Virus record (IMG/VR): IMGVR_UViG_3300021964_000014
Length of the DNA stretch: 64,000 nucleotides
Source of the DNA: a virus
Strand: one strand, 5' to 3'
This document shows positions 8,000 through 55,325 of this stretch, piece after piece. The notes beneath the pieces were generated by a model, which saw only the letters and a list, made by a program, of their open reading frames with translations, ran no database searches and was not told the origin of the DNA. The translations under genes were made by a program, and so were the position numbers. Each line of letters opens with the position of its first letter. The stretch's first letter is position 1.

Positions 8000-8000
8000 A

Positions 8001-8038: not shown

Positions 8039-8047
8039 AATAAATAG
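8036..8047 (-). promoter_or_regulatory. Putative late promoter CTATTTATTATA
   Basis: Recurrent intergenic motif upstream of structural genes. Confidence 0.65.
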
Positions 8048-8061
8048 CGTGAAAAGATTGT

Positions 8062-8235: not shown

Positions 8236-8236
8236 T

Positions 8237-12406: not shown

Positions 12407-12408
12407 AA

Positions 12409-25646: not shown

Positions 25647-27218
25647 TTACACTGCTAACATGTCAGAGATGTAAATCTTACCGTAGAATTCTGGTCTAAT
25701 CATCTTCTTCGCATAACGAGTCATGATACCTTTTCTTGGAGTGAAGGTATTAGGATCGTATACTAAAGGAGTCATGATTAATGGTACATATGGAGCATAT
25801 ACAGCACCACTTTCTAGGAACTGACCACCTCTAAATCCTAATAGGATAGTGTTTTCAGTCATATAAGGGTTTTTGTATACTTTATATCTACCGTTAAGTT
25901 GTCCAACTTTTTGAACACCCATTGCAAACTCAGCTTGGTCACCGTCAGTTTGTGCAGCATATCCTGGAATAGATTCTAAGATAGTTGCAACTGCTGGAGA
26001 ACATACTAGGAAGTTAGCACCTCCTCTAAGAGTTTTTTGGTGAATTTTGTTAGATACTTTTTGGATTTTAGTTCCTAAAGTTTGGAACCATTGTCCTTGA
26101 GTATTGTAGAATCCACTTGAAGCAGTAGCCCAAGCAGAACCATTCCATACTCTATTGTTTTCAGCAGACCACTTTTCAGTTGTTCTTGCACCGCCGATCA
26201 ACATATCTAAGATCTCAAGATCAATCTCCATAGAGATATACTCACTCAATAAAGATGTTAACTCAGCCTCAGCATCAATACTGTGGTAAGCGTTAAGATC
26301 TTGAGCGAATTCTGGAGTCCATTGTGCTTTCAACTTTCTAGTTTTAGCAACAACTGCCTCAGATTTTAACTCTACATTGATTTCTGGGATGTTGATAGAT
26401 CCAGCAGGAGCGTCTTCAAAGTCTCCTCTTGAATTGTCAGCTGGTACAGCATGCCATTTGATAGCACCTGTAATTGCACCTGCAGCAGTTGCTGTTTTAG
26501 CGATTACAAATACTAAATTACCACTACCGTCAACATAAGTCAATTCAGGGTTAGAAGTAATGTCAGTTGACCCAGATAAGATTCTGAAAGCTCTTACACC
26601 GTCAACATCATATCCAGCAGGAGCTGCAGCAGATACTGTAAAGTAATCAGCAGGATCCTTGTCGTCGTCAAAGTTTACTGATGCAGATGCAGCAGATCCA
26701 GTAGCGACAGCAGATAGAGCAACGTCAGATCCAGTAGCGACAGTATATCCGAATGCACCAGCACCGTATAGACCACCAGAAGGATCAACATCTACTCCCA
26801 TTTTATTCACAACTGATACGTTTCCGTATAAGCTTGAATCGTTAGTTTTTCCGTGTCCAGCAGTACCGTATTTAAAGTCTAAATAAAATACTAGTCCAGA
26901 AGGAAGGTTCATTGGTTGTACAGAGACGAAATCTTTAGATGAGATTTGTGCGAATACCTTTCTTACTAAAGGTAGAGCAACACCAGCCCATTGTTCAGAT
27001 CCACCACCTGCAGCGCCGATTGCAGAAGTACCAGTAGATGATTGCTCAGCTACGATTTGTTTTGCTTGGTTCTCTAACATGATAGACATGTTAGCTGTGT
27101 CTTTTTCGTTTAGACCTTCAAGCAATCCAGAAGCACCCCACTTATCAGCTAACCTTTTTGCGTCTTCTTGAAGGGCTTTGTAGCCGTTCGCGCTTTCTAA
27201 TAGGTTGTTAATTTCCAT
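25647..27218 (-). CDS. gp23: Major capsid protein (T4 gp23 family)
   Basis: VSVQPMNLPSGLVFYL, AKTRKLKAQWTPEFAQDLNAYHSIDAEAEL, YAPYVPL, DPNTFTPRKGIMTRYA; propeptide probably ends at IVAE. Confidence 0.97.
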   Translation of the reverse strand: MEINNLLESANGYKALQEDAKRLADKWGASGLLEGLNEKDTANMSIMLENQAKQIVAEQSSTGTSAIGAAGGGSEQWAGVALPLVRKVFAQISSKDFVSVQPMNLPSGLVFYLDFKYGTAGHGKTNDSSLYGNVSVVNKMGVDVDPSGGLYGAGAFGYTVATGSDVALSAVATGSAASASVNFDDDKDPADYFTVSAAAPAGYDVDGVRAFRILSGSTDITSNPELTYVDGSGNLVFVIAKTATAAGAITGAIKWHAVPADNSRGDFEDAPAGSINIPEINVELKSEAVVAKTRKLKAQWTPEFAQDLNAYHSIDAEAELTSLLSEYISMEIDLEILDMLIGGARTTEKWSAENNRVWNGSAWATASSGFYNTQGQWFQTLGTKIQKVSNKIHQKTLRGGANFLVCSPAVATILESIPGYAAQTDGDQAEFAMGVQKVGQLNGRYKVYKNPYMTENTILLGFRGGQFLESGAVYAPYVPLIMTPLVYDPNTFTPRKGIMTRYAKKMIRPEFYGKIYISDMLAV

Positions 27219-27254: not shown

Positions 27255-28289
27255 TTAAATAATACCAGCTAATTTTTGCATTCTTTGCACCGCAGAAGAT
27301 ACTTCACTAATTACTTCTGGTTTACTTGCAGTAGTTCCAGTAGCTTTAGATGCACTTCCTAATTTGCTTTCGTTTACTTTAGTTGTCTTTTTAGTTACAA
27401 CGTTTTCAGATACTGTTTCGAATACTAATTTTACTTCTTTAACAGTTTCTGCTTTATCAAAAGCAGCGATGATGTTAACTTTTTGACTCTCACTAAGGTT
27501 GTTAGCTTTGAATACTTTATTAACATACATAAGTTTTGCGTTTAGAAGATTTACTTCCTGTAGTTGACTCTGTAAAGTTTCAATAGTTGCTAAAGCTTCT
27601 GTTAATTCAGAATTGTCTTCTTCTTTAACTTCTTCTTCGTTTACTACATCTTCTTTTACTTCCTCTTCTACTTCTTCAGTAACTTCTTCTTCAATTTCCT
27701 CGTTAGTAGCTGATTCTAACTCGGCTAATAATTCGTCTAGATCGATTTCGTCATCTTCAGCACCTACTTCCATGTCGTCCATTGCTGGTTCCATTTCCGC
27801 ACCTGCGTCCATATCTACTCCGTCTAGCTCTTCTTCTCCACCGTCACCCATTTCTTGAGCGATAATGTCTCTGATAAGGTTCTTTAGGTCATCGACTTCC
27901 ATGTCTTTAACTTCAATATCCTCATCTTCCTCTTCGGCTTCTACCTCTTCGTCGCCTTCAGCTTCGTCCTCAGATTCTTCTGAGTCATCCTCGGCTTCTA
28001 CTACGTCTGATTCTTCCATCTTATCATCGTCGTCGCTATGCATTGCTTCTTCTACTCCTTCAGATTCTTCAACAGCTGTATCAACTGCTTCCTCTACTTC
28101 TTCTTCGACTTCGTTTACTACTTCTTCTTCAACTTTGGAATCTTCCATTTCTTGAAGTTTAGCAGCTAACATGTCCTTTAGATGTGGAGTTAAAGACTCT
28201 TCTAGAGCTTCTTTAGCGTTAGCAATAGCGGCTTCTCTAATAGATTTAGCTTCAGCAATAGCTTGCTTGAATAAATCTTTGTTTGCCAT
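27255..28289 (-). CDS. Prohead core scaffolding protein (gp22-like)
   Basis: Very acidic and coiled-coil, many x-x-E sites, ends RMQKLAGII; lies directly upstream of the capsid gene. Confidence 0.85.
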   Translation of the reverse strand: MANKDLFKQAIAEAKSIREAAIANAKEALEESLTPHLKDMLAAKLQEMEDSKVEEEVVNEVEEEVEEAVDTAVEESEGVEEAMHSDDDDKMEESDVVEAEDDSEESEDEAEGDEEVEAEEEDEDIEVKDMEVDDLKNLIRDIIAQEMGDGGEEELDGVDMDAGAEMEPAMDDMEVGAEDDEIDLDELLAELESATNEEIEEEVTEEVEEEVKEDVVNEEEVKEEDNSELTEALATIETLQSQLQEVNLLNAKLMYVNKVFKANNLSESQKVNIIAAFDKAETVKEVKLVFETVSENVVTKKTTKVNESKLGSASKATGTTASKPEVISEVSSAVQRMQKLAGII

Positions 28290-28427: not shown

Positions 28428-29033
28428 TTATACTACACCAGATAACTTAGGTGCTAACTTTTTAACCGCTATTATAAGCTCGTCTGCTTTAGTACCAGAA
28501 AGTCCTGCTTCAACTGCACCCATAATAGGGCTGCCAGATGTTAAAGCTTGAATTGAGCCGTAAACCGAGAATGCAGCTGCGATGGCAACTCCGACATATA
28601 AAAGAAATTCTGCAGCTGTTGTTAACTTTTCATCATTTACTTTACCATTTTCATCAGTATAAAATTTAGATGCGAACCCAGTGTTTTTTATAACCCACTT
28701 GATAATCTTAATATACTTCTTATGTAAGTTATGACCTTGATCTTCTATCCATTTAGCAGCTTTGACTTCTTTATCTTGTTCCTCTTCGCTTTTGCCTAGA
28801 AGTTTTTTAAAAATTTTTACTACCCACTGTACTATTCTACCTATATATTCTATAATTTTTGGAGCTGCTAATATTGCGCCAATAATTAAAGGAATGCCTA
28901 CAGCTTCATCTAATTTTCTTTGTTCTTCTTCAGAAAGAGTGGATAGAGGAAGGTCATCACGTAATGGGGCTTCTAAAGCTAGCCTTAATCCTCTTTCTTC
29001 TGCGGATTCTAATATAAGTTCAGATAGTTTCAT
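28428..29033 (-). CDS. Putative membrane protein (201 aa) with cargo-like leader MKLSELILES
   Basis: Hydrophobic segments VGIPLIIGAILAAP and FLLYVGVAIAAAFSVYG; sits between protease and scaffold. Confidence 0.7.
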   Translation of the reverse strand: MKLSELILESAEERGLRLALEAPLRDDLPLSTLSEEEQRKLDEAVGIPLIIGAILAAPKIIEYIGRIVQWVVKIFKKLLGKSEEEQDKEVKAAKWIEDQGHNLHKKYIKIIKWVIKNTGFASKFYTDENGKVNDEKLTTAAEFLLYVGVAIAAAFSVYGSIQALTSGSPIMGAVEAGLSGTKADELIIAVKKLAPKLSGVV

Positions 29034-29611
29034 TACGCTCTTAATATATCGTTAATAATAGAATCTAAATTCATATATTTAGAAACTTTCTTTTTACCTT
29101 CATTTAACGATATAGGGTTCATAAATGCACCGTGAGTAGAAGGATTAGATACAAAGTCCCAACATACTAATTCAAAGTCTGGTTGTACTTCTAAATTACC
29201 TTCGTTAGTCTGTTGAACTGATCCGGTACCTCTAGAACTAATACCGATAGTATGTCCTGCTTTGATTATTTCTTTTACAATATTACCTGCTGGTGTATTT
29301 AGTAACTCAACTTTACCCATTAAGTCATCACCTTTCCACCATAGGTCTTTTACAATATGAGAAGCATTTTTTAAAGATACAACAGGAGATTCAGGATGAT
29401 CTAATTCACCATATGCATTACCATTCTTAACGAATTCATCCATATACTTACTCATCTCTCTTTCTAATATAGCTTTAGAATAAACTCTACCGTTTTGATT
29501 CTTAGCTGTTGCTCTTTGCATAACACCTTCAACCTCAAATACACCTGGTCTAGTTTTTGACTCGGTAATAATAGGCCTAAATGTTGATACTTCTACTAAT
29601 AATTGTGCCAT
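29033..29611 (-). CDS. gp21: Prohead core protease (T4 gp21 family)
   Basis: NQNGRVY, GELDHP (catalytic His), GISSRGTGS (catalytic Ser), WDFVSNPSTHGAF. Confidence 0.95.
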   Translation of the reverse strand: MAQLLVEVSTFRPIITESKTRPGVFEVEGVMQRATAKNQNGRVYSKAILEREMSKYMDEFVKNGNAYGELDHPESPVVSLKNASHIVKDLWWKGDDLMGKVELLNTPAGNIVKEIIKAGHTIGISSRGTGSVQQTNEGNLEVQPDFELVCWDFVSNPSTHGAFMNPISLNEGKKKVSKYMNLDSIINDILRA

Positions 29612-29614
29612 GTC

Positions 29615-31726
29615 TTATTTTTTAGTCTCTCTTAATGATCCGTTTACCGGAGGTGTATAAACAGTATCTTTAACTGGTTCTGCTTCTCCTAAAGGAGCTT
29701 CACCTGAGTTATGTCTGTCTATATCTCTTTGAGAGATAACTCTTACTTTTGGTTGATCTAATCCTTTTGTAAAACCTTTTTTAGTTACAGGTCTAAGATC
29801 TTTTATAAATGCTGTTTCAATAGCAGGAGCTAAAAATCCTCCTACTTTTAAGCCTTCTTCATTTCTTATATCCCCCATAGCATCAAATGCTTTCTGAATC
29901 TTACTTCTAGTCTTGTCGTAATATGATTCTATATCTGTTACTACATCTTGTAATTGTAGTAGTACTGATTTCATTCCTTCAAATCCTCCGTAAGTATCAG
30001 TCATTTTAGCTAATTCTTGAGTAGCAGCTTCGTTAAGAGTGCCTTCTTCTAGTACTTTTGAAATGATAGCTTTAATGTTTTCTTTCACCATTTCATCTTT
30101 ACCCATTGCTGTTTTGATAGCTTTATCTTTAGCAGCCATATAATCATCTCCATCAACGTCTCCGTCTCCGTCGTGATCTTTACCTTTCTTTTCATTTAAG
30201 TTATAATGATCTTGTAAAGCTTCGATAACTTCTTCTGCTTCTTCTGCTTCACTGAATCCTGATTCTCCTGCTCTATCTTGAATTAAAGAAATAAATTCAT
30301 CTAAGCTACCTACTCTTTCAGTTACTACTGCTTCAGCTTCTTCTAATTCTTTTCTATTAGGATTAGCTCCTTCATTAAATCCAATTAAAGTTTGCTTGAT
30401 AGCTTTCTTAAAGTTTCTAATATGATCTAAAGCTTCTGATTTATCTCCATCATTAATAGCATCGATAGCTAAACCTAAATGACTGTTTTCTGAATGATAA
30501 TTAACATCTTCAAAAGAGTCATATAAAGCTTGTAAAGTAGCAATTGGAGTGTTTAATCTAATCTTCATACCAAATTCTAACATACCTTCATAATCGAAGT
30601 CAGAAGAAAACAGATCGCCTGGTTTAAAAGCTTTTACGGGTTTATCTTCTCTACCGTACTTTTCGATAGCTTTCATATCTTCGTCAGATAATTTTTCTTC
30701 CATATTTTTAGCAGCTGCCTTATACTTGGTAGCATCGCTTCCGCCAGTTTCTGGTTTCTTATTACCTTTTCTATCAACACCCATTACTTCTCCAACATCA
30801 TCTCTATTGATAGTTTCGTATTCATCGTAATTATTCCATACATCATTGATGTCGTTATAATCTATATCTCCGCTAAAAATATCTACTCTATGAGTTCTGA
30901 TAAAGTCTAAAGCATCTTGAGTACTTACTTTATGACCTGAATCTGGATGGCCATTTATAGTTAAAAAATCTATAATTTTTCTAAGAGCCATTTTTCTATT
31001 ATGGTTGACTGTTCTTTCTCCATCTATACCTGGTTCGGTAGGGATAGGATCGGCTTCTTTAATACCGTGTAGTTTGTCATACCATGCTTTAAATTCTGGA
31101 TCTCTATCTAAGTTAGCTAATAATTCTGGAGCTAATGAATCTAATCCGTGATCGTCTACCTGCTGTATAGCTTTTTCCGCATCGTCTGGATCTTCCACGT
31201 ATTTTAAAATAATATTAAGTAAAGCATTCATACTTTCATCATCAAATACTGTTGGTACTCCAGCTTCTTCTTTTAAGTCGGCTTTTTTCATACCGTTAAA
31301 AGTATCTACCTTATTTTTTTCATTTGGTTCAACCATTTGATCATGCTTGTCGACCTTATTAGACTCGCCTGACATTAGATTAAGGTAGTGTAGTGGATTC
31401 TTTTTTAAATTTTTTAGAGCTTTATCTTTAGCTTTAGCTTGATCCTCTTCAGATACTTTATCATGAGACATAAGTCCCATTGCTTCTAATTCAGCATCGA
31501 CTCCTCTTCTGATAGCTTCATCAGATATATTGTCGAAAGCAGAATATTCTGGCATTTTATCTGCTTCAGATATCATTCCTTTCTGTTTAAGTATGTTTAC
31601 AGTATCTTCAAATCCTAAGAATTGATTGATAAGTTGGGGCCATGCCATACGAGCATCTCTTACGAATTGTTTCTTTGAAAAGGATTCGTTTAATACCCCT
31701 CTATATTTTTCAGTTAACGTTTTCAT
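29615..31726 (-). CDS. Putative internal head polyprotein (703 aa)
   Basis: Acidic; repeated LNE/ISE/LKE/IKE/VTE/VKE sites between short modules; DHDGDGDVDGDDY motif; located between portal and protease. Confidence 0.6.
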   Translation of the reverse strand: MKTLTEKYRGVLNESFSKKQFVRDARMAWPQLINQFLGFEDTVNILKQKGMISEADKMPEYSAFDNISDEAIRRGVDAELEAMGLMSHDKVSEEDQAKAKDKALKNLKKNPLHYLNLMSGESNKVDKHDQMVEPNEKNKVDTFNGMKKADLKEEAGVPTVFDDESMNALLNIILKYVEDPDDAEKAIQQVDDHGLDSLAPELLANLDRDPEFKAWYDKLHGIKEADPIPTEPGIDGERTVNHNRKMALRKIIDFLTINGHPDSGHKVSTQDALDFIRTHRVDIFSGDIDYNDINDVWNNYDEYETINRDDVGEVMGVDRKGNKKPETGGSDATKYKAAAKNMEEKLSDEDMKAIEKYGREDKPVKAFKPGDLFSSDFDYEGMLEFGMKIRLNTPIATLQALYDSFEDVNYHSENSHLGLAIDAINDGDKSEALDHIRNFKKAIKQTLIGFNEGANPNRKELEEAEAVVTERVGSLDEFISLIQDRAGESGFSEAEEAEEVIEALQDHYNLNEKKGKDHDGDGDVDGDDYMAAKDKAIKTAMGKDEMVKENIKAIISKVLEEGTLNEAATQELAKMTDTYGGFEGMKSVLLQLQDVVTDIESYYDKTRSKIQKAFDAMGDIRNEEGLKVGGFLAPAIETAFIKDLRPVTKKGFTKGLDQPKVRVISQRDIDRHNSGEAPLGEAEPVKDTVYTPPVNGSLRETKK

Positions 31727-32811: not shown

Positions 32812-34701
32812 TTAGTCCTCTAAATCTCTTAATTGAGTTTCATCTAAGAGGTTAGACTTGGTTTCTTCTGTCTTTTCAAAGATTAATTTCTTTTTATCTT
32901 CGAATGAATCTTTAATTTGATGATATATAGTTTGTGCTTTAGTAGTATTAGTTTCCATCATATTTTCATTGTCTGATGGAAATCCTCCGTGCATACCGTG
33001 AACTCCTAATCTATCTCTTCCACCCATAGGATCGTCGTTAGTACCGTATACTGACATTTTTTCTTTAGGTCTACCGCCTTCAGGTCCTACTTCATTATAT
33101 CCGTCTGGTACAGATCCCATTGCTCCGCCTTTCTCTGTAGCGGTAGCTCTTCTACCGTACATTGAGGCTAAGTCATGAGGAGTACCATATGATCTACCTG
33201 ATTTTGCAGGATCATTACCTTCAGCTTCTATTTGAGCATGTCTAAAGGCTCTCTTACCATCTTCTCTAACTAAATCTCTCATCTCATTATAAGTATCTTC
33301 TGACATATCAAATATATTTTCATAAATGTAGTCTGAAGAGAATAACTTAGAGTCTTTCATTTGATTAGCTAGATCAATTTTTTCTTTTAATAGAGCTACC
33401 TTCTCTTGTTCGTATATTACAGAAGGATTAGTAAGCTTTAATTCGAAGTTGGTTAAACTTTCTCCGGTAAAACCTTGAGTATATAAATGAACCAAAGCTA
33501 TTTTAGTTAACTCTGATTCAATAATTTTTTGTATTCTTTCAACAGTTCTAGCGAACCTAATATCTTCTGCTGCTAGTGTTGCTTTACCCTGTAAGTCTCC
33601 TTCATATCCAAAATATGCTTTCGGTATTTTAAGAGCTGCAAACATTTTAGCTTGTAGATATTGAATATCATTTGTTCCGTCATAATCTAAACCTTTAGTA
33701 GTTTCGATTCTAGTTGACTGATCTCCTCCACGTACAGGTATGTAGAAGTCTTCCATCATATTCTGCATGTTAAACTTCAAGTTATATTGACCTGTGTTAG
33801 GATCAACATAAGGAGTCTTTTTCATAGTGTTGATAGTCTTTTGCATAAACTGATCAACTTCTGCAGGAGGAATAGAACCAACATTAACAAAGAAAGTTCT
33901 CTTTTCAGGAGCTCTCATTATACGATGTATTAACATCGCATCTTCCATTAACGTTAATTGCTTATATATTTTTCTAGCTGGTTCAATGTATGATCTACCG
34001 TAAGGTAAGTAAGCATGATCTGATATTAACCTAAAGTGAGCTACTTCGTAGTTATCTAAAGTGATAACTTTATTATCTCTTCTAGGAATATAATTAGGAT
34101 CTTGAGAAGCGGCAATGCCGTCGGGATCTATAGTAAATTGAACTTCAGAAGGTTTTTCAGGATTAGCACCTTCATGTCTTGCTATATTATATACTGTATA
34201 AGGAAGGACGTTATAAACTCCAAACTTTTCTGCTATTTCTAACTTTAAGAAGTAATCTCCGTACTTTAACATTCCTCTAGTCCAGGACCATAAGTTAAAC
34301 TCTACGTTTAGAACATCATAAAATAGATTATAAAGTACTCTTTGTAGGTTTTCATCTGATGATTTAACAGATAGTACTTCTCCAAGATCGTTTTTTAAAG
34401 TAGCTTCATCAGCTAAAATATCTAAGGCAGAAGCAATAATTGGATCAGTGTCCATTGCTTCATAGTCTGAGTATAACTGTATTCTTAACGTTTGGTAGTT
34501 AAGGTTAGGACTAAATAAGTTTTTACTGTTAAATACGTGTAATCTTGAAAATCTGTCAATTAACGCGTTCGTTTTAAAGTCACCAGTAGTCTGTATACGG
34601 TTTACATCCGCCACCTTAAGTTCGGTACCGCCTACGTTTCTTATTATTACATCCGAAGAGAAGAGTCTTTGTAGTCTTCCAAATAATGATTTATCGGCCA
34701 T
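32812..34701 (-). CDS. gp20: Portal protein (T4 gp20 family)
   Basis: LMEDAMLIHRIMRAPEKRTFFVNVG, MMEDFYIPVRGG, DIQYLQAKMFAALKIP, EDIRFARTVERIQ. Confidence 0.95.
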   Translation of the reverse strand: MADKSLFGRLQRLFSSDVIIRNVGGTELKVADVNRIQTTGDFKTNALIDRFSRLHVFNSKNLFSPNLNYQTLRIQLYSDYEAMDTDPIIASALDILADEATLKNDLGEVLSVKSSDENLQRVLYNLFYDVLNVEFNLWSWTRGMLKYGDYFLKLEIAEKFGVYNVLPYTVYNIARHEGANPEKPSEVQFTIDPDGIAASQDPNYIPRRDNKVITLDNYEVAHFRLISDHAYLPYGRSYIEPARKIYKQLTLMEDAMLIHRIMRAPEKRTFFVNVGSIPPAEVDQFMQKTINTMKKTPYVDPNTGQYNLKFNMQNMMEDFYIPVRGGDQSTRIETTKGLDYDGTNDIQYLQAKMFAALKIPKAYFGYEGDLQGKATLAAEDIRFARTVERIQKIIESELTKIALVHLYTQGFTGESLTNFELKLTNPSVIYEQEKVALLKEKIDLANQMKDSKLFSSDYIYENIFDMSEDTYNEMRDLVREDGKRAFRHAQIEAEGNDPAKSGRSYGTPHDLASMYGRRATATEKGGAMGSVPDGYNEVGPEGGRPKEKMSVYGTNDDPMGGRDRLGVHGMHGGFPSDNENMMETNTTKAQTIYHQIKDSFEDKKKLIFEKTEETKSNLLDETQLRDLED

Positions 34702-34743: not shown

Positions 34744-36318
34744 TTACAATAACCAAGATATATCTTCTTGCTGTCCATAGCCATTATCTATAAGATAAGG
34801 ATTATTTTGCTGATTTCCAACTGATTTAATGACAGCTTTGTTTTTAGCGTTTAGATTCTGAAAAGAAGATAATTGAGCTCTAGCTAAATCCATACCTTGT
34901 TGTCTTAATCTCAATGCAGTATCTCTAACGTATAATGCAGTTGCTGCTGCTATTAGTAAATCATCGTTATAGTTAGTCTGTGCTTGAGGTTTACCGTTTT
35001 TCCATACAAATACACGCATCTCTCCTAATAGCCTCTTAGATTGTATAGTAACTCCTCTTTCTCTAATGTACTCTATCATTTTAGCTACTACCAAAGGTCT
35101 AGTTCTAACTGACATGGTAAAGCCAGGTACTAGTTTATCTCTTTCATATTTAGACATATAGGATTCTACAGTTTCCATTTGAGAGGTAGAACTGTAGTAT
35201 AAGTTACTGTATTGACGTTCTAATATCTGTTCTATAGTAGCCCATCCTATATTTGCATTTTCTACTACTAATAACGCATCGTTATACTCTGATGCAATTC
35301 CTACTAATACATTACCGAAGTCTTTAGGAGATAATTTACCTTTATATTCACCAACCTGTGTACAAGTTTCTATATCAAATATATGAAATGCAGAATAATC
35401 GGCAGAATCACCTCTAGCGACGTCAGCTACTACCATATAAGATTTAGTAAAATCTACTCCTTCCCATATCCATAAGTTACCATCTACACCTCTTTTTTCC
35501 AATGGTTCTTTTAAGTATGTTTGCTCGTAGAACATCATATCATCTGGTTCAAATACTGTATCACCAGAAGCTAAGAAATCACAATCACACTCTTGTCCGG
35601 CCATTCTAGGTCCTAGATCTGAGTCTTGTTGATCTCTCCATTCTTGATCTCTTTCAGGATGTACCGTCCAAGGTAATCTTATAGGTAAGAATGAATTCTC
35701 ACCACTTTCAGCTTTTTCCCAAGTTTGATGGAACCAGTTACCAATACCATTAGGTGTTGATAGAGCCATACATTGACCACCGGTTGCTAGTGTTTGTTGT
35801 GCTGCAGTAAACGTTTCGTCAATGTTATCAACAAAGGCTGCCTCATCGATAAGTAGTAATGATACTGCTTCGGATCTTGCTGCATCAGTATTAGAAGATT
35901 TCGCTGTAATTTTAGATCCATTTTTTAATCTTAAAGATAATTTATTCTTTTCTACTGCTTGTAACCTTAACCATTTAGGTAACTGATCGTACATAAACAT
36001 TGTCTTAGAAACTAAGTTACGAGCAGTTGCTTGTGTTGTAGCTAATGCTAGTACGTTTTTATCTTTATGAAATAACATTAACCATAAAGAATAAGCAGCA
36101 GATAAAGTTGAGATACCTAACTGTCTTGACTTTAAAGTAATTATGTATTGATTGTCTCTAAATAAATGTAGTACTTTAGACTGGAAAGGATAGAGATTAA
36201 ATAATATTCTACCTCTAGTAGGGTGTTGAATATAACAGTACTTCTTCATAAAGTACGCCGGATCTTTGGCGCACTTGATATACTCTTGTGCGATTATTTT
36301 TTTTATGTCTTGACTCAT
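34744..36318 (-). CDS. gp17: Terminase large subunit (T4 gp17 family)
   Basis: KSRQLGIST (Walker A), LLIDEAAF (Walker B), STPNG, VADVARG and DDLL nuclease motifs. Confidence 0.96.
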   Translation of the reverse strand: MSQDIKKIIAQEYIKCAKDPAYFMKKYCYIQHPTRGRILFNLYPFQSKVLHLFRDNQYIITLKSRQLGISTLSAAYSLWLMLFHKDKNVLALATTQATARNLVSKTMFMYDQLPKWLRLQAVEKNKLSLRLKNGSKITAKSSNTDAARSEAVSLLLIDEAAFVDNIDETFTAAQQTLATGGQCMALSTPNGIGNWFHQTWEKAESGENSFLPIRLPWTVHPERDQEWRDQQDSDLGPRMAGQECDCDFLASGDTVFEPDDMMFYEQTYLKEPLEKRGVDGNLWIWEGVDFTKSYMVVADVARGDSADYSAFHIFDIETCTQVGEYKGKLSPKDFGNVLVGIASEYNDALLVVENANIGWATIEQILERQYSNLYYSSTSQMETVESYMSKYERDKLVPGFTMSVRTRPLVVAKMIEYIRERGVTIQSKRLLGEMRVFVWKNGKPQAQTNYNDDLLIAAATALYVRDTALRLRQQGMDLARAQLSSFQNLNAKNKAVIKSVGNQQNNPYLIDNGYGQQEDISWLL

Positions 36319-36322
36319 AACT

Positions 36323-37399
36323 TTAGAAGTTATAACTGAATCGTGGTAAGCCGTCTTTCATGTAGATAGAAATCTTAGTACCAACTGCATCTACTAATTT
36401 ATTTGCAGGTACTACAGCATAATTTCCAGACTTATCATCTAAGAAGAATATTTCTTCAAATTCTTCAGTTTCTGTATATAACTTTATCACTTTTTTAGAA
36501 AACGCTTGTTCTGCAGCATCTGCATCTATTTCGTTTCCTTTTTTATATTTCTTTAAACTAAAATCAGAAAAATCTATTCCTGGGTAGTTACTTCTTAATG
36601 CACCATCCATTGCATCTATCGATGCATCAATTTTATCACTTTCTTGTTCTGCTACAACTGCAAGGATTGTGTTTAATCTATGTAAAGGTCTTTTACCTTT
36701 AGTATCTACTTGAATAGGATTATCTAATTTTGAATTAACTGCTGATATAGCATCCTGTATAAATTTCTTATCAGTATTTTTACCAAATTGAGCTTTTTGG
36801 CCCATTGGTATAGCTCCTCTATTTTTTACTTCAATACCTTTCTTACCAACTCCAACATCACCAGAAGGAGTATCTCCATTAACATCTGCTGTTAAAGCAC
36901 ATAGAAAAACCTCTCCTTTACCTGTAGCTACATTACCTATTTGAGGTTTGATATCGAATAAAAAATTAATCGTTTCATCTGAGAATAATTTTTTAAATTT
37001 TTCTTTTAAGTTACCAGAGGAACCTAAATCAGCATAAGTTATAGCACCGTCGGTAATATACTTATGATATGTTTGAATATCTCCATTTTCTACCATTCTG
37101 TTATAAATGGTTTTAGAAATAGAAGCTACTGATTTGCCTTGTTTATCTAAGAACGATAGTACATCATCCTTATAGGCTACACCAGATATACCGTTGAGTA
37201 TAGATTTTAATTGTTCCGGAGAAAACTCTCCTTTTTGTATGGCATCAATAACTTCTGCTTTAGATATTTGTCCATCTGCATTAGTTAATTCAGCAATTAA
37301 TTTATCTAATATTGCTTTATCTTCAGCATTATCCATAGATGGAGTACCTGTTTTAGATCTCCATGCCCATTCTGTATATAATCTATCTGTTACGTTCAT
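36323..37399 (-). CDS. Putative PD-(D/E)xK restriction-like endonuclease (358 aa)
   Basis: GKGEVFL...SGDVGVGKKGIEVK fits E...D...ExK; N-terminal leader ends KLIAE. Confidence 0.6.
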   Translation of the reverse strand: MNVTDRLYTEWAWRSKTGTPSMDNAEDKAILDKLIAELTNADGQISKAEVIDAIQKGEFSPEQLKSILNGISGVAYKDDVLSFLDKQGKSVASISKTIYNRMVENGDIQTYHKYITDGAITYADLGSSGNLKEKFKKLFSDETINFLFDIKPQIGNVATGKGEVFLCALTADVNGDTPSGDVGVGKKGIEVKNRGAIPMGQKAQFGKNTDKKFIQDAISAVNSKLDNPIQVDTKGKRPLHRLNTILAVVAEQESDKIDASIDAMDGALRSNYPGIDFSDFSLKKYKKGNEIDADAAEQAFSKKVIKLYTETEEFEEIFFLDDKSGNYAVVPANKLVDAVGTKISIYMKDGLPRFSYNF

Positions 37400-39522
37400 T
37401 ATGCTTCTGGTTCTTCTGCTGGTTCTTCAAAATCAACTGGTTCTCCTGTTAAGTCAGCTCCACCTTCTTCACCGCCTTCTTCTCCTCCAAGGTCGTCAAC
37501 TCCTAGATCGTCTCCACCACCTCCGGCAGCATCATCTCCAGGAAAATCACCTCCACCGCCTCCAGAAGAGCCTCCTGAATCTACATCAGCAGCTTCTCCT
37601 TCTCCGGCTCCGGTCATTGGACCTTCTTTGTATAATACAGCTAATTTATCTAACGCTTGTTGATAATCGTTTATTTTGTCGATATAAAATCTTTTACCCA
37701 TTATTTGAGCTTGGAATCCAGTACCGGTCCATTTTAAGATATAATCTTGACCGTTCTTTAAGTTGATTCTAAATTCAGTAGGTCTTGGAGAAATCCAATC
37801 TACACTATCAACAAATTCTTTAAAGTCTTCTGTTTGTAGTTTTATAATAGCTGCTTGTAGTGTAGGAAATTTAGCTAGTATTTGATCTGTAGCATCTTCC
37901 AGTACTGTATCTTTAGGAGCTTCTTCATCACCTTCTTCTTCAGGTTCTGGCTCTTCTTCTTCTTTAATATCGTCTAATAGACTTTCTGCTAAACTAAGTT
38001 TACCTTCTTTATAGTAGTCTGGATCTTCATAGTAATCGTCTTCTTCTCTTCTACGTTGTTCGTAGTCGGTATAATCATCATATCTATCTTCATCACTTTG
38101 AGCGTAATTTAATAAGTCGTTTAACGCAGCACTATTATGTAATCTAGGATTTATAATTCTAAGTGTATTAGGATGAGTATCACCTCTTCCTGTGAAGAGT
38201 TCGTAATCTATACCTTCTTCATATTTCTTTTTTAAATAATCTACAACAGCTTGTATTGCGTCTAAATCATATCCAAAATGAACTTCATCATTTGAATTTT
38301 CATTTATATCGTATCTTTGCAGTGCGCTCATTATACGATCAATTTTCTTATCTATATCATTAAGTATAGCTCCATAATCATCTGCAATTGGACCTCCTTC
38401 AGGTTCAGCTTCTTGCTCCATATTTCTTAAAACATCAGCTCTTTCGTCTTCTAAGTCTTGAAGTTTTAATCTCAAGTCCATAGCTTTCTCTAAACTGATA
38501 CCACGGGATTTAGGTGCTTTATCTTTAGGTTGTTGTGCTTTCATTCTAGCAGCTCTCACTTTGATAGCAACTGGATCGTTAATATCCATTCTTTCATTAA
38601 TCTTAGAAAAAGCTGATTCGATGCCTTCCATCATTCTTTGCATCTTAAGCAGATTATATTGCTCAGGTCTTTCTGTTCTTAGGTAGCTTTGTAATTTTCT
38701 AAAATTAGTTTTAGTTAATTCGAAAAACTCTCTAGCTGCTTGATCAGTTCTTATATCATCAGATCCCATTAGTTTTTTAATGTCACTTATAATATCTGAA
38801 AAGTTTTTATATAGAGATCCAAATGAAGGTAATTTAATTACCTTATGTCCTATAGAGCCTGTTTCTTTATTTTTTTCATATGTTTTAAAGTAAGTATCCA
38901 TATTAGAACTAAAGAAATCATGCTTACCGCCAAACATCGGTTCACCATATCTTTTAACAATACCAGCTCTTTGTTTATCTGTTAAGTCTTCCCACTGAGT
39001 AACTCTACTTCCAGCTTTCTTTTCCATGTCAGCTTTTGGCATTTCATCTATAGTACCAGAAGTATTTCCTCTATCTTTATAAAAGTCATGCTGTGCTTGT
39101 GCTTCTCGGCCTAAACCGCCCATCACATGATCAACTATGTCTTTTAAACCTTCAGCTGAAATAGCTACTGGTGTGTAGTTACCATCTGTCATATAAGAAT
39201 CGATTCCAACAACACCTGATTGTCCTGCTTTTCTCATTCCTGCTTTGATAGCATCTTTTTGATCAATTCTATAACCACTCATTCTACTGATTGTAAACTT
39301 ATCAGTGTCTTTATTATACTGGAATATTACTGCTTGAGGAGCTCTACCTTCACCTTTACTTACCATATAACCTTCTACTCCTTCTTTAGGCGGGTAACCA
39401 TCTGGTCTACGTTCTGTTAGGTCGTACCCTTTTGACTTAAAGTAATCAAATAATCGGCCACCATCCATTTCGTTAAGTAGCTGTCCGTAGGACTCTAATA
39501 TGAGTTTTTCTAATTTATGCAT
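37399..39522 (-). CDS. Putative internal head polyprotein (707 aa) with leader MHKLEKLILES
   Basis: Modules separated by LNE, IDE, INE, INE, LAE, IKE; Gly/Glu-rich acidic tail. Confidence 0.6.
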   Translation of the reverse strand: MHKLEKLILESYGQLLNEMDGGRLFDYFKSKGYDLTERRPDGYPPKEGVEGYMVSKGEGRAPQAVIFQYNKDTDKFTISRMSGYRIDQKDAIKAGMRKAGQSGVVGIDSYMTDGNYTPVAISAEGLKDIVDHVMGGLGREAQAQHDFYKDRGNTSGTIDEMPKADMEKKAGSRVTQWEDLTDKQRAGIVKRYGEPMFGGKHDFFSSNMDTYFKTYEKNKETGSIGHKVIKLPSFGSLYKNFSDIISDIKKLMGSDDIRTDQAAREFFELTKTNFRKLQSYLRTERPEQYNLLKMQRMMEGIESAFSKINERMDINDPVAIKVRAARMKAQQPKDKAPKSRGISLEKAMDLRLKLQDLEDERADVLRNMEQEAEPEGGPIADDYGAILNDIDKKIDRIMSALQRYDINENSNDEVHFGYDLDAIQAVVDYLKKKYEEGIDYELFTGRGDTHPNTLRIINPRLHNSAALNDLLNYAQSDEDRYDDYTDYEQRRREEDDYYEDPDYYKEGKLSLAESLLDDIKEEEEPEPEEEGDEEAPKDTVLEDATDQILAKFPTLQAAIIKLQTEDFKEFVDSVDWISPRPTEFRINLKNGQDYILKWTGTGFQAQIMGKRFYIDKINDYQQALDKLAVLYKEGPMTGAGEGEAADVDSGGSSGGGGGDFPGDDAAGGGGDDLGVDDLGGEEGGEEGGADLTGEPVDFEEPAEEPEA

Positions 39523-39523
39523 A

Positions 39524-42181
39524 TTATTTGTTTTTCTTTTTGTAGTCTTTATGCCAGTGTTCTTTTTGAGTAACTATTTTAAGTTCTTCAACAGGAATAT
39601 CTTCTACTACTTTTTTACCTTCTTTAAATAATACGTCATAATGAGTAACAACATATTTATTTCCTTCTTTTATCAAAGTATGTTTCTCTGGAATGCAAAT
39701 ACCTTCTCCGTATGTTTCATGTACTACTTTCGCTGCACAATCGTGTTTATATCCAGGAGCTGATTCTTTGGATAGTTTATCTAAATACTTAGCTTGATCG
39801 CCATGTCCTTTAACAGACTTCTTTAATTGCTTTACAATCTTTTTAACGTCTTTCTTTTCTTTCTTATTTAATTCAGCTTCATTCTTTTCAGCTTTAGTAG
39901 CGTAAATAGCTTTTCTTTGAGCGTCAGATTTATACTTACCTTCATCCATATCATCTTCTTCTTCATCGTAATATTCTTGAATCTCTTCGATGATAGATTC
40001 TAATGTAGTGTCGTATCTATTAGAACTTGAACCGAAATCAAAGGCACCGTAAGCATCTCCTTTAGATAGCATTCTTGGAAACTTCTCTCTAACAATTTCT
40101 CTAGCTTCATCTCCTTTTTGAGCCAACTCATCTAAAATAGCTTGTAGATCATAGATAGCATTTTTTTGATCTGATGAAAGTTCTGTTAGTTCTTGTCCTT
40201 TATGAGTACCTGCTACTGCTTGATCTAAATGTTTTTCTAATTCTTTCTTTTTAGCAGTTAAATCTTTTAATTGATCTACTACTGATTTATCACCGGCTTT
40301 ATATTGCTTTGCTAATTCTTTCATCTTATTAACAACTTGACCGTATGCTTTTTGAATTTTAGCTGCTTTTATTTCATCCATATTTTTACGTCTTGGATAT
40401 TGAGTTGACATATCTCTTAAGTCACCAACAACTGATTGCATTGCTTTAGCTAATGTTTCAAACTGATCAGCAGTAACTTGAATATAATCTCCTCCAAATT
40501 CAGTTTGTGATGGTACTGTAATTTGTACCATTACTCCTTTTTTACCACCAGAGAATCTTTTTATTTGCATCCCTCCTTTATCGTATAATTCAGTACCTTC
40601 GTTAACTCCTTCTTCTAAAGCTAACTTATCAATAAGAGGCTGCTTTTCTTCTGAGTCTAAATAATGATATGCTGCAGACATATAATCTCTAGCTAAGATT
40701 AATTTCTTTTGCCACCAGTTAGGAAAATCTACTTCTCCGTCTACTTGATCATATTGAGCTAATTTCTTTGCTAATTTAGCAGCATAGGTAGCTGTTTCAA
40801 AAGCAGAAGACTTTAACATACTAGGCTCATCATCTTGATGTCCTACATCTAAATCTCCTCCTTGATCTTCTACTTCATTTTCTTTTAAGTACCCTAATTG
40901 TTTAGCATACTTATATCTCAATCTAGCATCATCACCAGGTCTTTTACCGAAAGTATAGTTAGGGTCTCTTCTAACTGAGATATCAATATCACTAGCAGCT
41001 TTAGAACCAAGTTTTTCTGTATCACTAAATCCTAGTGCATTTTCTTCAATTGATTCATCCATTTCGGCTGAATGATCTACTACTTCAATATCGTTAGCTT
41101 GTAGATCCATCACTACATCATTCATAAATCCACTTGGATCTTCGTCTGGTTCTTGATATAATTCTGGGTTTTCTTTTCCTTCTGGATCGTCATACATATC
41201 GTCGAATCCGTATTCATGTCTGAATATAAAGTATATAATTACGTTTCCTGCTCCGTCGTCGTCTACTACTTCTGTTTTTACGTAAGTTGGATCTACATTA
41301 TTATCTAAAATAGACATTGTCTTTTTGTAATCTCTTCTAGATACTTTTAAGTAATGGTGATCATCTCCTTCTCCTTCTTTAACTCCCACTTTATCTCTTT
41401 TAGCAAATACCTTTTCTTTGTCTTCATCAGATAGTTGACTAAAATCCTTACCCCCAAATTCTTTATGAGCAATTAAATCCAATCTATCTGTTTCTTCATG
41501 GCTCAACTCTCTACCTTTATAATTTACTTTTTCATTTAGAGATTTGAAGTGTTTTAATAGCTCATTTGCTAGTACATCAACGTTAACGATTGCCTCTCCT
41601 GAAGGTTTAACACCTACATTAACTAGCTCTTTGTCAAATGAAAAATCCACTAGGTGCAACGAATCGTCGCTAATATAAAAAGAAAATTCATCTTCTCCTC
41701 CTTCACCTTTGTATACTACTTGAATATCAAAACTATTGGTATCTATACGATGAGCTTTCATTCTAGCTAATTCATCACCAGCTTTTTTTAATGCTATAGC
41801 TAATGCCTTTCCTACTTGTGTAGCGATGGCTTTAGTCTCATTTTTATCGAATTCGACTCCTGAGGTTTTATCTAATTTATCCACTTCTTTTAGTTTTTGT
41901 CCTTTTGCAGAATCAATTCCAGTTATATTTGGATCTTTTTTAAGGTCCATAGCAGTTTTTCTATCCATTGCAACGGCTTTAGTATCGCCGCCTTTGGTAG
42001 AGATAAACATAGTTTCTTCTTTTTCTGCTAATTGCTTCTGTAGGGATTCTTTTATGGTAGTGAGTTGCTCTACTGTTTTAGTAGAGAAGTGTTTATCTAA
42101 TGCAGGTGACTTAGTAGAGTGAATGCTTTGCAAAGCGGATTCTACCTGCGTTAGACGGTTTTTGATTTCATCGTACGTCAT
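39524..42181 (-). CDS. Putative internal head polyprotein (885 aa)
   Basis: At least 10 modules delimited by IKE/LAE/LKE/LNE/VKE/MDE/VNE/LTE sites. Confidence 0.6.
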   Translation of the reverse strand: MTYDEIKNRLTQVESALQSIHSTKSPALDKHFSTKTVEQLTTIKESLQKQLAEKEETMFISTKGGDTKAVAMDRKTAMDLKKDPNITGIDSAKGQKLKEVDKLDKTSGVEFDKNETKAIATQVGKALAIALKKAGDELARMKAHRIDTNSFDIQVVYKGEGGEDEFSFYISDDSLHLVDFSFDKELVNVGVKPSGEAIVNVDVLANELLKHFKSLNEKVNYKGRELSHEETDRLDLIAHKEFGGKDFSQLSDEDKEKVFAKRDKVGVKEGEGDDHHYLKVSRRDYKKTMSILDNNVDPTYVKTEVVDDDGAGNVIIYFIFRHEYGFDDMYDDPEGKENPELYQEPDEDPSGFMNDVVMDLQANDIEVVDHSAEMDESIEENALGFSDTEKLGSKAASDIDISVRRDPNYTFGKRPGDDARLRYKYAKQLGYLKENEVEDQGGDLDVGHQDDEPSMLKSSAFETATYAAKLAKKLAQYDQVDGEVDFPNWWQKKLILARDYMSAAYHYLDSEEKQPLIDKLALEEGVNEGTELYDKGGMQIKRFSGGKKGVMVQITVPSQTEFGGDYIQVTADQFETLAKAMQSVVGDLRDMSTQYPRRKNMDEIKAAKIQKAYGQVVNKMKELAKQYKAGDKSVVDQLKDLTAKKKELEKHLDQAVAGTHKGQELTELSSDQKNAIYDLQAILDELAQKGDEAREIVREKFPRMLSKGDAYGAFDFGSSSNRYDTTLESIIEEIQEYYDEEEDDMDEGKYKSDAQRKAIYATKAEKNEAELNKKEKKDVKKIVKQLKKSVKGHGDQAKYLDKLSKESAPGYKHDCAAKVVHETYGEGICIPEKHTLIKEGNKYVVTHYDVLFKEGKKVVEDIPVEELKIVTQKEHWHKDYKKKNK

Positions 42182-42206: not shown

Positions 42207-42219
42207 TATAAATAAATAG
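42207..42219 (-). promoter_or_regulatory. Putative late promoter CTATTTATTTATA
   Basis: Recurrent motif upstream of the 885 aa gene. Confidence 0.6.
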
Positions 42220-44122: not shown

Positions 44123-44136
44123 TATAAATATAAATA
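44123..44136 (-). promoter_or_regulatory. Putative late promoter (tandem TATTTATA)
   Basis: Plus strand tataaatataaata in the intergenic gap. Confidence 0.55.
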
Positions 44137-45362: not shown

Positions 45363-45490
45363 TTTCTAGTGACTTTTTTTTCATAAGGCATATCTTGTAT
45401 CATGGTTGTGCTTCCGCATTTACTACATTTTGCTAAATATGAACCTGTTTTCCAGTATGACTTGATCATATACTCGTTACAGCACTTCAT
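45350..45490 (-). CDS. Small Cys-rich zinc-ribbon-like protein (46 aa); not in ORF track
   Basis: MKCCNEYMIKSYWKTGSYLAKCSKCGSTTMIQDMPYEKKVTRKVGS*; TAATG coupling to the upstream gene. Confidence 0.6.
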   Translation of the reverse strand: MKCCNEYMIKSYWKTGSYLAKCSKCGSTTMIQDMPYEKKVTRKVGS

Positions 45491-47163
45491 TAACTATTCT
45501 TTAAATTATCTTCCCAGTTTCTAAAAGTTATATTGCCTAATGTATATGCTTCTTTTTCTAATTCTAATAACTTAGAATCAGCAGTAGTATCTTGTGTCTG
45601 TATATTATGTAAAGTACCTTGTAAGTTTTGCATATGATGAATCATTTCATGAGCATATGATCTTACAATATCTTTATCATGTCTTCCTAAGGTATATAAA
45701 ACTATTTCTCTAGCATTAGGATCGTAGTATGCTGTTTTACCAAAAAAGTTAGAAGCATTTGCTTCATCTTTTCTTAATTTAACTTCAGGTAAAGGTTCTA
45801 TATTCATTCCATTATCCAACATGTATTCTGTTAGAGAAGTAATATAGTCTTTGAGTTGAGGTTTGGATTGTTCTACACCTTCTTTCATTTCTGGATGAAA
45901 CATAAACTTAACAATGGTAGCATCTTTAGCTACTTCTTTACCGTCTATTTCTATTCCAATTGGATAAGGTTTAGTTTTATCATCTGCCCAATAAGCTACG
46001 TCGTAACTTTTATCTTCATTACTTGTTACTAATAGACCTCTATTGTATGTATCTTCTTCTGCTTGGAGTACAACCATTTTACCGGTAGGAAGAATCATAT
46101 CACCCATTAGTTTAATATCACCTTCGTCGTACCCGTCTTTATTATATCGATTTTCCTGTAAATTAGAAATATCAACAACCCATATTTGAGGGTCGATTCC
46201 ATTCTTTACTAATCCTGATAGTCTGGTATTACCAGCAACTAAGTCGTAATCGTTGTCAGAGAACTTAACAGCTATCGACATTTCGATTGTACCTCTTTTA
46301 AATGCGTCTAAGAATCTTTGTTTTTTAGGTTCTTCTAAACTATCAAAGTTGAGGTCTACATTTCCTAAGTTTCTTTTAATAGAACTATAAGAAACAGGTT
46401 TTCCTTTTTTAGCTATATTTAACCAACCTTCTTTACCCATTTTTACAAATTCTGGGTATCGGTTAGCTTCTTCCCATTCAGCATCAAAGTTAGGATTAGT
46501 GTATGTTATGTCTTTATTTTCATTAAAGTAACCTTCTACAAATCCTTCAATATTTGATCCTAATATTTCTGCTACTATTTTATCTTTCAAATCGTTTAAT
46601 ATATTTAATATTTCTTCTCTAGATAATTCTTCAGGGAAAAAATCTACAATTGTATCTAAATTACCAGATAGTATATTCTTTCTAAAATCTGTTGCTCTTA
46701 CTCCTGATCCAGGTGCTGATGCAAAAGCTAACCCTTGTACGTTATCAACGTTGTTAAATGTTGTAACTCTCCTTAGATCTACAAAGTCTTCTTCACCTCT
46801 TATCCCTGTTACTGCTACAAATTCACTTTCTGTATTTTCTCTTGCATAATCTTTAGCAGCAAACATTGGATTTTTTTGTCCATCTACTATTTCAACATTA
46901 CCTAGATGTTTCTTATAAATATTCCAAATATGAGTAGCTTCCTCTTTATCTATTCCATTTCTTTCTCCTCCACCTATAAAAATGATTACTTTATCTATTT
47001 TAGGTTTATTGTTATTATTACCTTTAAATAAACTTGAAGCTTTATCTTGGTAATCATCTTTATTATATAACGTACCATTATAAGAGCCGTCGAGTAAAGA
47101 TTTTACTACGTTAAAATGACCTCTATGAGGTGGTTTAAATGCTCCTGGGTATAATGCTATCAT
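45490..47163 (-). CDS. Multidomain protein: HIGH-family nucleotidyltransferase + ParB/Srx-like + unknown + HExxH metallopeptidase
   Basis: YPGAFKPPHRGH and VRATDFRK; YDLVAGNTRL; AYYDP...RSYAHEMIHHMQ...LEKEAY. Confidence 0.8.
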   Translation of the reverse strand: MIALYPGAFKPPHRGHFNVVKSLLDGSYNGTLYNKDDYQDKASSLFKGNNNNKPKIDKVIIFIGGGERNGIDKEEATHIWNIYKKHLGNVEIVDGQKNPMFAAKDYARENTESEFVAVTGIRGEEDFVDLRRVTTFNNVDNVQGLAFASAPGSGVRATDFRKNILSGNLDTIVDFFPEELSREEILNILNDLKDKIVAEILGSNIEGFVEGYFNENKDITYTNPNFDAEWEEANRYPEFVKMGKEGWLNIAKKGKPVSYSSIKRNLGNVDLNFDSLEEPKKQRFLDAFKRGTIEMSIAVKFSDNDYDLVAGNTRLSGLVKNGIDPQIWVVDISNLQENRYNKDGYDEGDIKLMGDMILPTGKMVVLQAEEDTYNRGLLVTSNEDKSYDVAYWADDKTKPYPIGIEIDGKEVAKDATIVKFMFHPEMKEGVEQSKPQLKDYITSLTEYMLDNGMNIEPLPEVKLRKDEANASNFFGKTAYYDPNAREIVLYTLGRHDKDIVRSYAHEMIHHMQNLQGTLHNIQTQDTTADSKLLELEKEAYTLGNITFRNWEDNLKNS

Positions 47164-48092
47164 GCTAAAAATGCTTGTACTTTTGAATCTATTTCTTTAG
47201 GAGTTGAATGCTGTAAAAGTTTTTGAAACTTTTCATTAAATAACATATCAGCTATATTATCTAAAACTTCAGTTTCTCTTTGATCTTGTTTTGCTTTTCT
47301 ATCTCTATACTTTTTTAGAACATCTCTCATTTTATCTAATCCAGGTCCTACTCCATTTTTATCATAAGCATCTTTAAATGCTTTCTTTAAAGCTCTATCT
47401 TCTCCGTACCCTTCTTTATCGTAATCTAAACTACCAATATGTTTTTTAAACTCTTCTTCTTCTTGAGTAGATAATTCAATAGGTTTTCTAAAAGTAGAAC
47501 CCCCTATATTGTTTGCTTCATTATATCTTTCTAAATAATCTTTAATACCAGAAGGTCCATTTTTTGCTGCTGTATTAAAAGCTTCTATTTCTTTACTATA
47601 TTTTCCTCCTCTATCGGAAACATGAATAGCTAAATTACCATTAGTAATTTTATCATATTCAGCAATTAGTTGGTAAACATTTCTCCAGGTTGAGAAGACA
47701 GCTGATCCGGGTACGTTTCTATCAGCTCTAGAAAAGTTAGAAATATAAGAAATCATAGGGTGAGTATACACCATTACCATGAATACATTATACCCTTTAT
47801 TAATTAGCTCATTAACCTTCTTAGGGTTAGAAGCTGTCGTATCCCATACAAAGCTAGTTCCTTTGTCTGATAGTTCCTCCGCCTCTTTGTCCGCTAGTCG
47901 AGCCCCTTGAGATAGATTGTTGTACGCTGGATGATCCTTGTCTTCCACGTATTTGTCTGGGTTGACTTGGGGGAGTGATGATAGGTTTAACTGGTTTAAC
48001 AGGTATGTTTTCCCTGCTCCAGCTCCTCCCGCCATTACTACCACTTTCGGGCCTGAGGTAGATTCTAGGATTAGATCTGTTAATTTGATCAT
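47160..48092 (-). CDS. P-loop small-molecule kinase (zeta toxin/AAA_33-like) with leader MIKLTDLILES
   Basis: VMAGGAGAGKT, VNPD, FVWDTT, R...R lid (RADRNV). Confidence 0.8.
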   Translation of the reverse strand: MIKLTDLILESTSGPKVVVMAGGAGAGKTYLLNQLNLSSLPQVNPDKYVEDKDHPAYNNLSQGARLADKEAEELSDKGTSFVWDTTASNPKKVNELINKGYNVFMVMVYTHPMISYISNFSRADRNVPGSAVFSTWRNVYQLIAEYDKITNGNLAIHVSDRGGKYSKEIEAFNTAAKNGPSGIKDYLERYNEANNIGGSTFRKPIELSTQEEEEFKKHIGSLDYDKEGYGEDRALKKAFKDAYDKNGVGPGLDKMRDVLKKYRDRKAKQDQRETEVLDNIADMLFNEKFQKLLQHSTPKEIDSKVQAFLA

Positions 48093-55103: not shown

Positions 55104-55325
55104 TTACGCAGTTCCTCCGCCGCTACCGTAGTTTATATCATCAAAATCTAATCCATAAAATTCAGACATACTTAAACCGGCTGTGCTATCAGACCAGTTT
55201 GTAGCGTTTATATCTAATTGAAAGCCTTCACCAGCTGTCTGTGCATCTAATTGAGCAGTAGACGTATTGTTCATTTCTGTGTTTATGTCCGCAAATGAAA
55301 TTGCACCTGTTGACTGTAATGCCAT
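55104..55325 (-). CDS. Small virion protein (73 aa), fibre-tip/adaptor-like
   Basis: MALQSTGAISFADINTEM...LSMSEFYG pattern typical of proteins encoded after S74-chaperoned fibres; TAATG coupling. Confidence 0.65.
   Translation of the reverse strand: MALQSTGAISFADINTEMNNTSTAQLDAQTAGEGFQLDINATNWSDSTAGLSMSEFYGLDFDDINYGSGGGTA

Follow-up and report, generated by a model that had tools for sequence, protein, structure and literature searches.

Shuffled module chains with prohead-protease-type junctions upstream of the head genes of a T4-type marine phage: candidate capsid cargo

Two adjoining genes and their modules

Two tightly packed open reading frames (ORFs) adjoin each other on the minus strand of a 64,000-nucleotide stretch of DNA (IMG/VR virus record IMGVR_UViG_3300021964_000014, hereafter the window) from an uncultured T4-type marine phage. 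Gene 1 (39524-42181) encodes a protein of 885 amino acids (aa; P0001) and gene 2 (37399-39522) a protein of 707 aa (P0002). An earlier note on the window had described both proteins as strings of dissimilar blocks separated by sites for the prohead protease. Both ORFs exist as described, and all 15 cut sites and the three blocks quoted there were found in the translations. The hydrophobic-x-Glu form assigned to the sites does not extend to LSKE|SAP (Glu806), which has Ser at P3. The site SIEE (Glu380) is real, yet relatives conserve MDE (Glu376), four residues earlier, at the end of the module concerned (module B).

Splitting of P0001 and P0002 at the candidate sites gave 17 modules, each of which was searched alone. 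This module-wise phmmer projection was adopted because the ends of raw BLAST alignments were too noisy as breakpoints, with about half of the clusters located within 5 residues of a site. Gene 1 starts with module A0 (residues 1-53; 42023..42181, minus strand), a helical hairpin which begins with MTYDEIK and ends with LAE|. It is followed by A1 (54-99), A2 (100-217), A3 (218-269), B (270-376), C (377-434), D (435-528), E1 (529-603), E2 (604-667), E3 (668-747), F (748-806) and G (807-885), and Glu is the last residue of every module. Gene 2, on the same strand, consists of a leader (1-18), the modules a (19-160), b (161-310), c (311-408), d (409-521) and e (522-640) and an acidic, Gly-rich tail (641-707).

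No Pfam family matched the modules of gene 1 or gene 2, and a set of 54 diverse family members (48,988 residues) yielded no Pfam family. In PHROGs, the window proteins and the 54 relatives matched solely families of unknown function, and neither database revealed a match of these proteins to the T4 internal proteins. A Foldseek comparison of the P0001 model with the PDB returned nothing at E <= 0.001 and only generic ferredoxin-like resemblances; in BFVD, only uncharacterised phage proteins and the C-terminal module of a cyanophage 'cytidyltransferase' were retrieved. Module G also occurs in cyanophages, either stand-alone or fused to cytidylyltransferase-like proteins. No leader was visible on the stand-alone copy of cyanophage P-SSM7 (P-SSM7_192), which is uninformative on packaging.

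P0001 and P0002 were modelled with AlphaFold2 using fragment alignments. Both models contain many confident small domains, with a mean predicted local distance difference test score (pLDDT) of 73.8 and a predicted template modelling score (pTM) of 0.31 for P0001, and values of 67.3 and 0.33 for P0002. Segments with a pLDDT under 50 include Glu99, Glu269, Glu380, Glu434, Glu524, Glu667, Glu747 and Glu806 in P0001, and Glu18, Glu408 and the cluster 499-542 in P0002, in which another such segment stops one residue before Glu160. Altogether, 11 of the 15 quoted sites fall in linkers with a pLDDT below 50 between confident mini-domains. The low pTM values and the location of these sites agree with the independent mini-domains that the earlier note had expected, and the sites are not buried in folded domains.

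Module shuffling and the grammar of the junctions

A full HMMER search of public metagenomes with P0001 retrieved 1,532 representative clusters (E <= 0.001; lengths of 156-1486 aa), most of which were matched in several separate stretches, and a scan of viral contigs with P0002 revealed 48 related loci. The homologues are not collinear. In 225 relatives, the 17 modules formed 145 distinct architectures, and their order was permuted: E1-E2-E3 was found as well as E3-E2-E1, and D-c-a and B-c-A2-G also occurred. Modules located in gene 2 of the window were present inside gene 1 of other phages. Only the chain ends are fixed, with A0 at the N-terminus in 83 of 84 cases, e as the last module in 40 of 40 and G at the C-terminus in 47 of 49, while the other positions vary. 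The flanking genes of 209, 284 and 358 aa served as control and were collinear in the same loci, those of 209 and 284 aa at near-constant length. The sites quoted from the window matched homology breakpoints and junctions in the relatives, as anticipated from the proposal that modules are gained, lost and reordered at x-x-Glu sites. Micro-homology at the junctions was considered as a recombination signal and judged unlikely, without a formal test, because the Glu codon alone is fixed.

Among the cultured phages of the collection searched, the sole relative is Flavobacterium phage immuto (Immutovirus; host Flavobacterium sp. LMO8). It possesses a single gene of 841 aa at the syntenic place, which combines some of the modules of gene 1 with some of gene 2. 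When this chain (gp191, P0003; L001 7849-10374) was read by eye, module D seemed to occur twice, in diverged forms (GHQD...WWQ and DDESSM...WVQ). Cut sites are predicted in gp191 at Glu57, 198, 256, 389, 483/487, 528/532 and 610, and the S77 protease of immuto is gp200.

Another polyprotein-like gene of the window encodes 703 aa (29615..31726, minus strand) and is located between the portal and protease genes, where T4 classically encodes its core and internal proteins. Three stretches of it (residues 156-226, 329-447 and 468-515) recur as modules in gene-1 homologues of other phages. In syntenic homologues only the first ~155 residues are conserved, and the immuto counterpart has a length of about 360 aa. 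Judged by these recurring stretches, the 703-aa gene is a third member of the chain system and draws on the same module pool.

The frequency of candidate sites, from which the earlier note had argued, failed against a composition-matched null. With 500 composition shuffles, [LIVM]xE was counted 24 times in P0001 versus 17.7 expected (z 1.8), and 10 times in P0002 versus 13.0 expected (z -1.0). The proteins of 284, 73 and 703 aa encoded between portal and protease were enriched in the motif (z of 2.3 to 3.8).

The placement of the motif was assessed at module junctions. Non-native pairings, defined as module pairs that are not adjacent in the window proteins, were examined first, so that the site was not simply inherited together with both flanks. 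[LIVMFYW]xE was present in 126 of 143 non-redundant segments covering 38 junction types, versus 62.4 +/- 5.7 of 143 random segments of the same length from the same proteins (at most 77 across 200 trials). In native-type pairings, 100 of 106 segments carried it. For the grammar of the site, the Glu closest to each module end was taken without conditioning on its neighbours and compared with interior Glu. Leu, Ile, Met or Val occupied P3 at 202 of 230 junction Glu (88%) versus 539 of 3045 interior Glu (18%), and Ala or Gly was found at P1' in 35% versus 14%; P2 at the junction Glu prefers Asp, Lys and Asn. A Glu directly precedes module F in 19 of 21 relatives and module G in all 34, with quite different sequences upstream and a laxer P3. 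The protease gp21 of T4 cleaves after Glu in L/I-x-E and was first observed to act at a Glu-Ala bond (PMC9026906). As read from these alignments, the junction grammar is the published gp21 rule.

Protease, leaders and head-gene neighbourhood

Genes 1 and 2 head a same-strand series of head genes, which starts with the conserved 358-aa gene and the gene of the large terminase subunit (34744..36318). The terminase is followed by the T4-type portal protein gp20 (32812..34701; both assigned by PHROG and Pfam searches), the genes of 284, 73 and 703 aa, the prohead protease (29033..29611), a 201-aa protein adjoining the protease (28428..29033), a 344-aa protein (27255..28289) and the major capsid protein of the gp23 type (25647..27218). 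All of them are encoded on the minus strand.

The prohead protease is a Peptidase_S77 of the T4 gp21 type (PF03420, E 3.6e-35), and its gene is located 8 kb downstream of genes 1 and 2 in this T4-like head operon. The protein aligned to T4 gp21 (PDB 5JBL) with an E-value of 2.9e-23, keeping the catalytic His (ELDHP) and Ser (SSRG), and its C-terminal SLNE|G was aligned with ITE|S of T4 gp21. Hydrophobic-x-Glu occurs six times in the propeptide of the major capsid protein, and the position corresponding to the T4 maturation site is near residue 52 of this protein, between MLE|N (Glu49) and VAE|Q (Glu58). The 344-aa protein directly upstream of the capsid gene is rich in V/I-x-E repeats, with Glu accounting for 23% of its residues, and its C-terminal part is coiled; it is likely a gp22-like scaffold.

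The N-terminal leader of gene 2 comprises 18 residues (MHKLEKLILESY..LLNE|; 39469..39522, minus strand) and is conserved in relatives. It is joined directly to module a in the window, to module b in one related locus (L012) and to module c in another (L039). Module a follows the leader in the window (LLNE|MDGG) and an internal junction in a third locus (LKEE|MDGG in L028), and would thus have the same mature N-terminus in both contexts. By analogy with T4, the leader is a candidate capsid-targeting propeptide, and the A0 hairpin of gene 1 is a candidate anchoring or targeting part. The LILE|S type of leader occurs on three unrelated proteins of the window: on gene 2, on the 201-aa protein (MKLSELILE|S) and on a Zeta-toxin-like P-loop kinase of 310 aa (MIKLTDLILE|S; 47160-48092, minus strand). 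The 201-aa protein and the kinase may be further head cargo. In Prochlorococcus phage P-SSM7, gene 191 (L002 1689-2849), a cytidylyltransferase adjoining the stand-alone module-G gene, starts with MKKFSAFLTE|A, and this start looks like a T4-style targeting leader, with L-x-E followed by Ala.

Upstream of gene 1, the motif TATTTATA (42207..42214, minus strand) is located 33 nucleotides before the ATG. Further copies precede the ATG of the portal gene, of the 284-aa gene and of three more genes by 25-38 nucleotides. Together with the gene-1 copy, they are located at the minus-strand positions 42207, 34730, 32800, 21270, 44123-44136 and 48548, and the motif is often followed by TA or AT. Its recurrence upstream of several head genes suggests a common late promoter, and the motif is a candidate for the shared late promoter of this phage group.

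Proposed capsid cargo, alternatives and known systems

We propose, with a probability of about two in three, that genes 1 and 2 and the 703-aa gene encode capsid-cargo polyproteins, which are cut by the S77 protease of this T4-type, immuto-related phage. The results above demonstrate that the chains are modular and shuffled, that their sites follow a grammar and are mostly located in linkers, and that the protease and the operon context are present. From these results, we infer packaging, cleavage, retention in the head and ejection. The loading of the chains into the head and their cutting into many retained mature proteins, as put forward in the earlier note, would be in line with the grammar, the S77 protease, the leaders and the operon context.

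In the proposed course of events, the conserved N-terminal part of a chain, i.e. the leader of gene 2 or A0 of gene 1, would dock it to the core of the prohead, in the manner of the T4 capsid-targeting sequence. The 5 to 12 modules behind this part, 46-150 residues long and comparable in size to T4 internal proteins, would fold independently, each closing with (L/I/M/V)-x-Glu and usually followed by Ala or Gly. The shell would enclose the chain and, after prohead closure, the gp21-type S77 protease would cut behind each junction Glu. The freed modules would be separate proteins of 5-17 kDa, in the size range of T4 IPI to IPIII, which would remain in the head and probably be ejected into the host together with the DNA. 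Since every module bears its own C-terminal cut site, recombination could add, drop or reorder modules, leaving loading and release undisturbed. Only the analogy to T4 IPI and Alt suggests that the modules might act in host take-over or anti-defence.

Several observations weigh against this proposal. The overall number of sites is at chance for this Glu-rich composition. Among the 29 motif copies of P0001, 12 are located at junctions and 17 inside modules, and because of the latter the motif alone cannot decide on cutting. Some junctions are non-canonical, with Ser, Thr or Lys at P3 (e.g. LSKE|S and KLTxE|), and the Fisher p-values of the grammar test are overstated because the compared sequences are related, although the effect itself is very large. 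In the models, Glu217, Glu528 and Glu603 of gene 1 and Glu310 of gene 2 are placed at or just past helix ends. Sequence comparison detected no similarity of the leaders to the T4 capsid-targeting sequence, and genes 1 and 2 are sited upstream of the terminase gene rather than between portal and protease. A literature search found no virion proteomics, N-terminal sequencing or biochemical work for this phage or immuto.

The abundance of interior motif copies, the total count at chance and the four Glu at helix ends would fit uncleaved or merely leader-trimmed multidomain virion or accessory proteins, in which the motif at the module ends acts as a structural end-cap or linker signature moving along with each module instead of a cut site. 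A structural cap is not expected to yield an aliphatic P3, Glu at P1 and Ala or Gly at P1' jointly, the combination known from the gp21 rule (PMC9026906). The motif persists next to different neighbouring modules, it also terminates the leader and marks the propeptide of the capsid protein, and the free permutation of the module order argues that the modules act independently. This explanation appears unlikely to us. The site counts are also what a pure composition effect would produce, as any protein with 9.6% Glu can be divided into blocks that follow hydrophobic-x-Glu and the composition shuffles gave only z 1.8 and -1.0. A junction placement of 126 of 143 versus 62 +/- 6 and a P3 bias of 88% versus 18% are impossible from composition. 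With the count at chance and the placement not, the composition-only explanation was rejected, and we attribute next to no probability to it.

The chains could also be scaffold or core components like gp22, gp67 and gp68 of T4, chopped so that the fragments exit the head and no mature product is retained or delivered. These T4 core proteins, likewise encoded in the head operon, are cut by gp21 at many L/I-x-E sites and mostly expelled as short fragments (PMC9026906), and the motif enrichment of the proteins encoded between portal and protease points in the same direction. The modules of the window chains, in contrast, are modelled as confidently folded domains of 5-17 kDa instead of short peptides, and the conserved architecture expected of core proteins contrasts with their hypervariable one (145 architectures in 225 proteins). 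Furthermore, the coiled, Glu-rich 344-aa protein next to the capsid gene already provides a separate scaffold-like protein. A role as scaffold is accordingly quite improbable.

Polyvalent proteins of phages and conjugative elements (Iyer et al. 2017, PMC5512222) resemble the chains in several respects: they combine 2-15 unrelated domains, are mosaic, and have been proposed to be delivered with the DNA and released by proteolysis. Many unrelated domains in mosaic architectures were found here as well. Polyvalent proteins are defined by known domains (MPTase, ArdC-N, DarA, ParB-like and others) and an embedded peptidase, and are thought to be processed by their embedded MPTase domains (PMC5512222). 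The chains might accordingly be polyvalent proteins processed by a zincin-type metallopeptidase, with a candidate HExxH domain in a neighbouring 557-aa protein (45490-47163, minus strand). This protein contains HEMIH at residue 505 and weakly matched the metallopeptidase family DUF6782 at E 0.024, below the curated cut-off and not significant. Its ends (1-215 and 431-556) are conserved and its middle is variable in relatives. As a separate observation, the 557-aa protein also gave a weak cytidyltransferase PHROG match. A motif search detected no HExxH in genes 1, 2 and the 703-aa gene, and none of the 54 diverse family members contained any Pfam domain, so that neither the characteristic domains nor an embedded peptidase were found. 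The junction grammar fits an S77 protease and has no tie to a zincin. Processing by a zincin is therefore very improbable, and the prohead protease would, unlike the embedded peptidase of polyvalent proteins, release the modules in trans at a fixed motif.

The capsid-cargo reading is best compared with the processed head proteins of T4 and of giant phages. In T4, a short propeptide common to otherwise unrelated head proteins is removed by gp21 (PMC9026906, PMC3012670, PMC7411985). The modules resemble IPI, IPII, IPIII and Alt (PMC9026906, PMC3012670) in being small, diverse and fast-evolving and, as proposed here, in being carried in a T4-type head. The T4 internal proteins possess a short, conserved propeptide at the N-terminus, which terminates with the protease motif and is cut after the Glu of L/I-x-E; likewise, the window proteins share a short propeptide with such an end (the gene-2 leader and the LILE|S type). 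The phage encodes a protease with its catalytic residues, and L/I-x-Glu-type sites are located between folded parts, as is typical of S77 substrates. The T4 internal proteins are encoded by one gene each, with their own targeting peptide and a single N-terminal cut (Alt also has a C-terminal cut). The window chains differ in that a single leader precedes up to 12 modules of internal-protein size, each joint having its own predicted cut site, and homology does not place them among the T4 internal proteins, as similarity to IPI-III or to the T4 leader was not detected.

In the giant phages phiKZ, 201phi2-1 and SPN3US, a diverged gp21 homologue likewise processes many head proteins after x-x-Glu, and the propeptides of these proteins have been proposed to target them to the prohead (PMC7411985, PMC10052503, PMC5694885). 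There, one long propeptide of about 110-130 residues is removed and chopped, resulting in one mature protein per gene, and no string of exchangeable mature modules comparable to the window chains has been described. In the literature search, no paper was found that links a polyprotein with prohead-protease cargo or reports exchangeable mature-module strings with prohead-protease sites.

The odds appear evenly balanced that the chains form a plug-in cargo system widespread among marine T4-type phages, in which up to a dozen interchangeable effectors, each as large as an internal protein, would be loaded behind one leader at fixed stoichiometry and released by the protease. If so, the pool of plug-in modules (at least 1,532 clusters at 50% identity, without a Pfam domain) would form a large untapped reservoir of proteins for host take-over or anti-defence. 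Being abundant and lacking any functional annotation, the family offers a large set of candidate proteins for these functions. If every joint is cut, tailed phages would also employ a true polyprotein strategy for injected proteins, and this would explain how recombination rebuilds an entire cargo set with the machinery for loading and release untouched. A leader combined with cut sites would, by the same logic, suggest how several foreign proteins encoded by a single gene might be loaded into a capsid.

Outside of these genes, four giant ORFs of 1900, 1389, 2257 and >2891 aa flank the head module on the minus strand (2297-19182 and 55325-64000); they presumably encode fibre or tail proteins.

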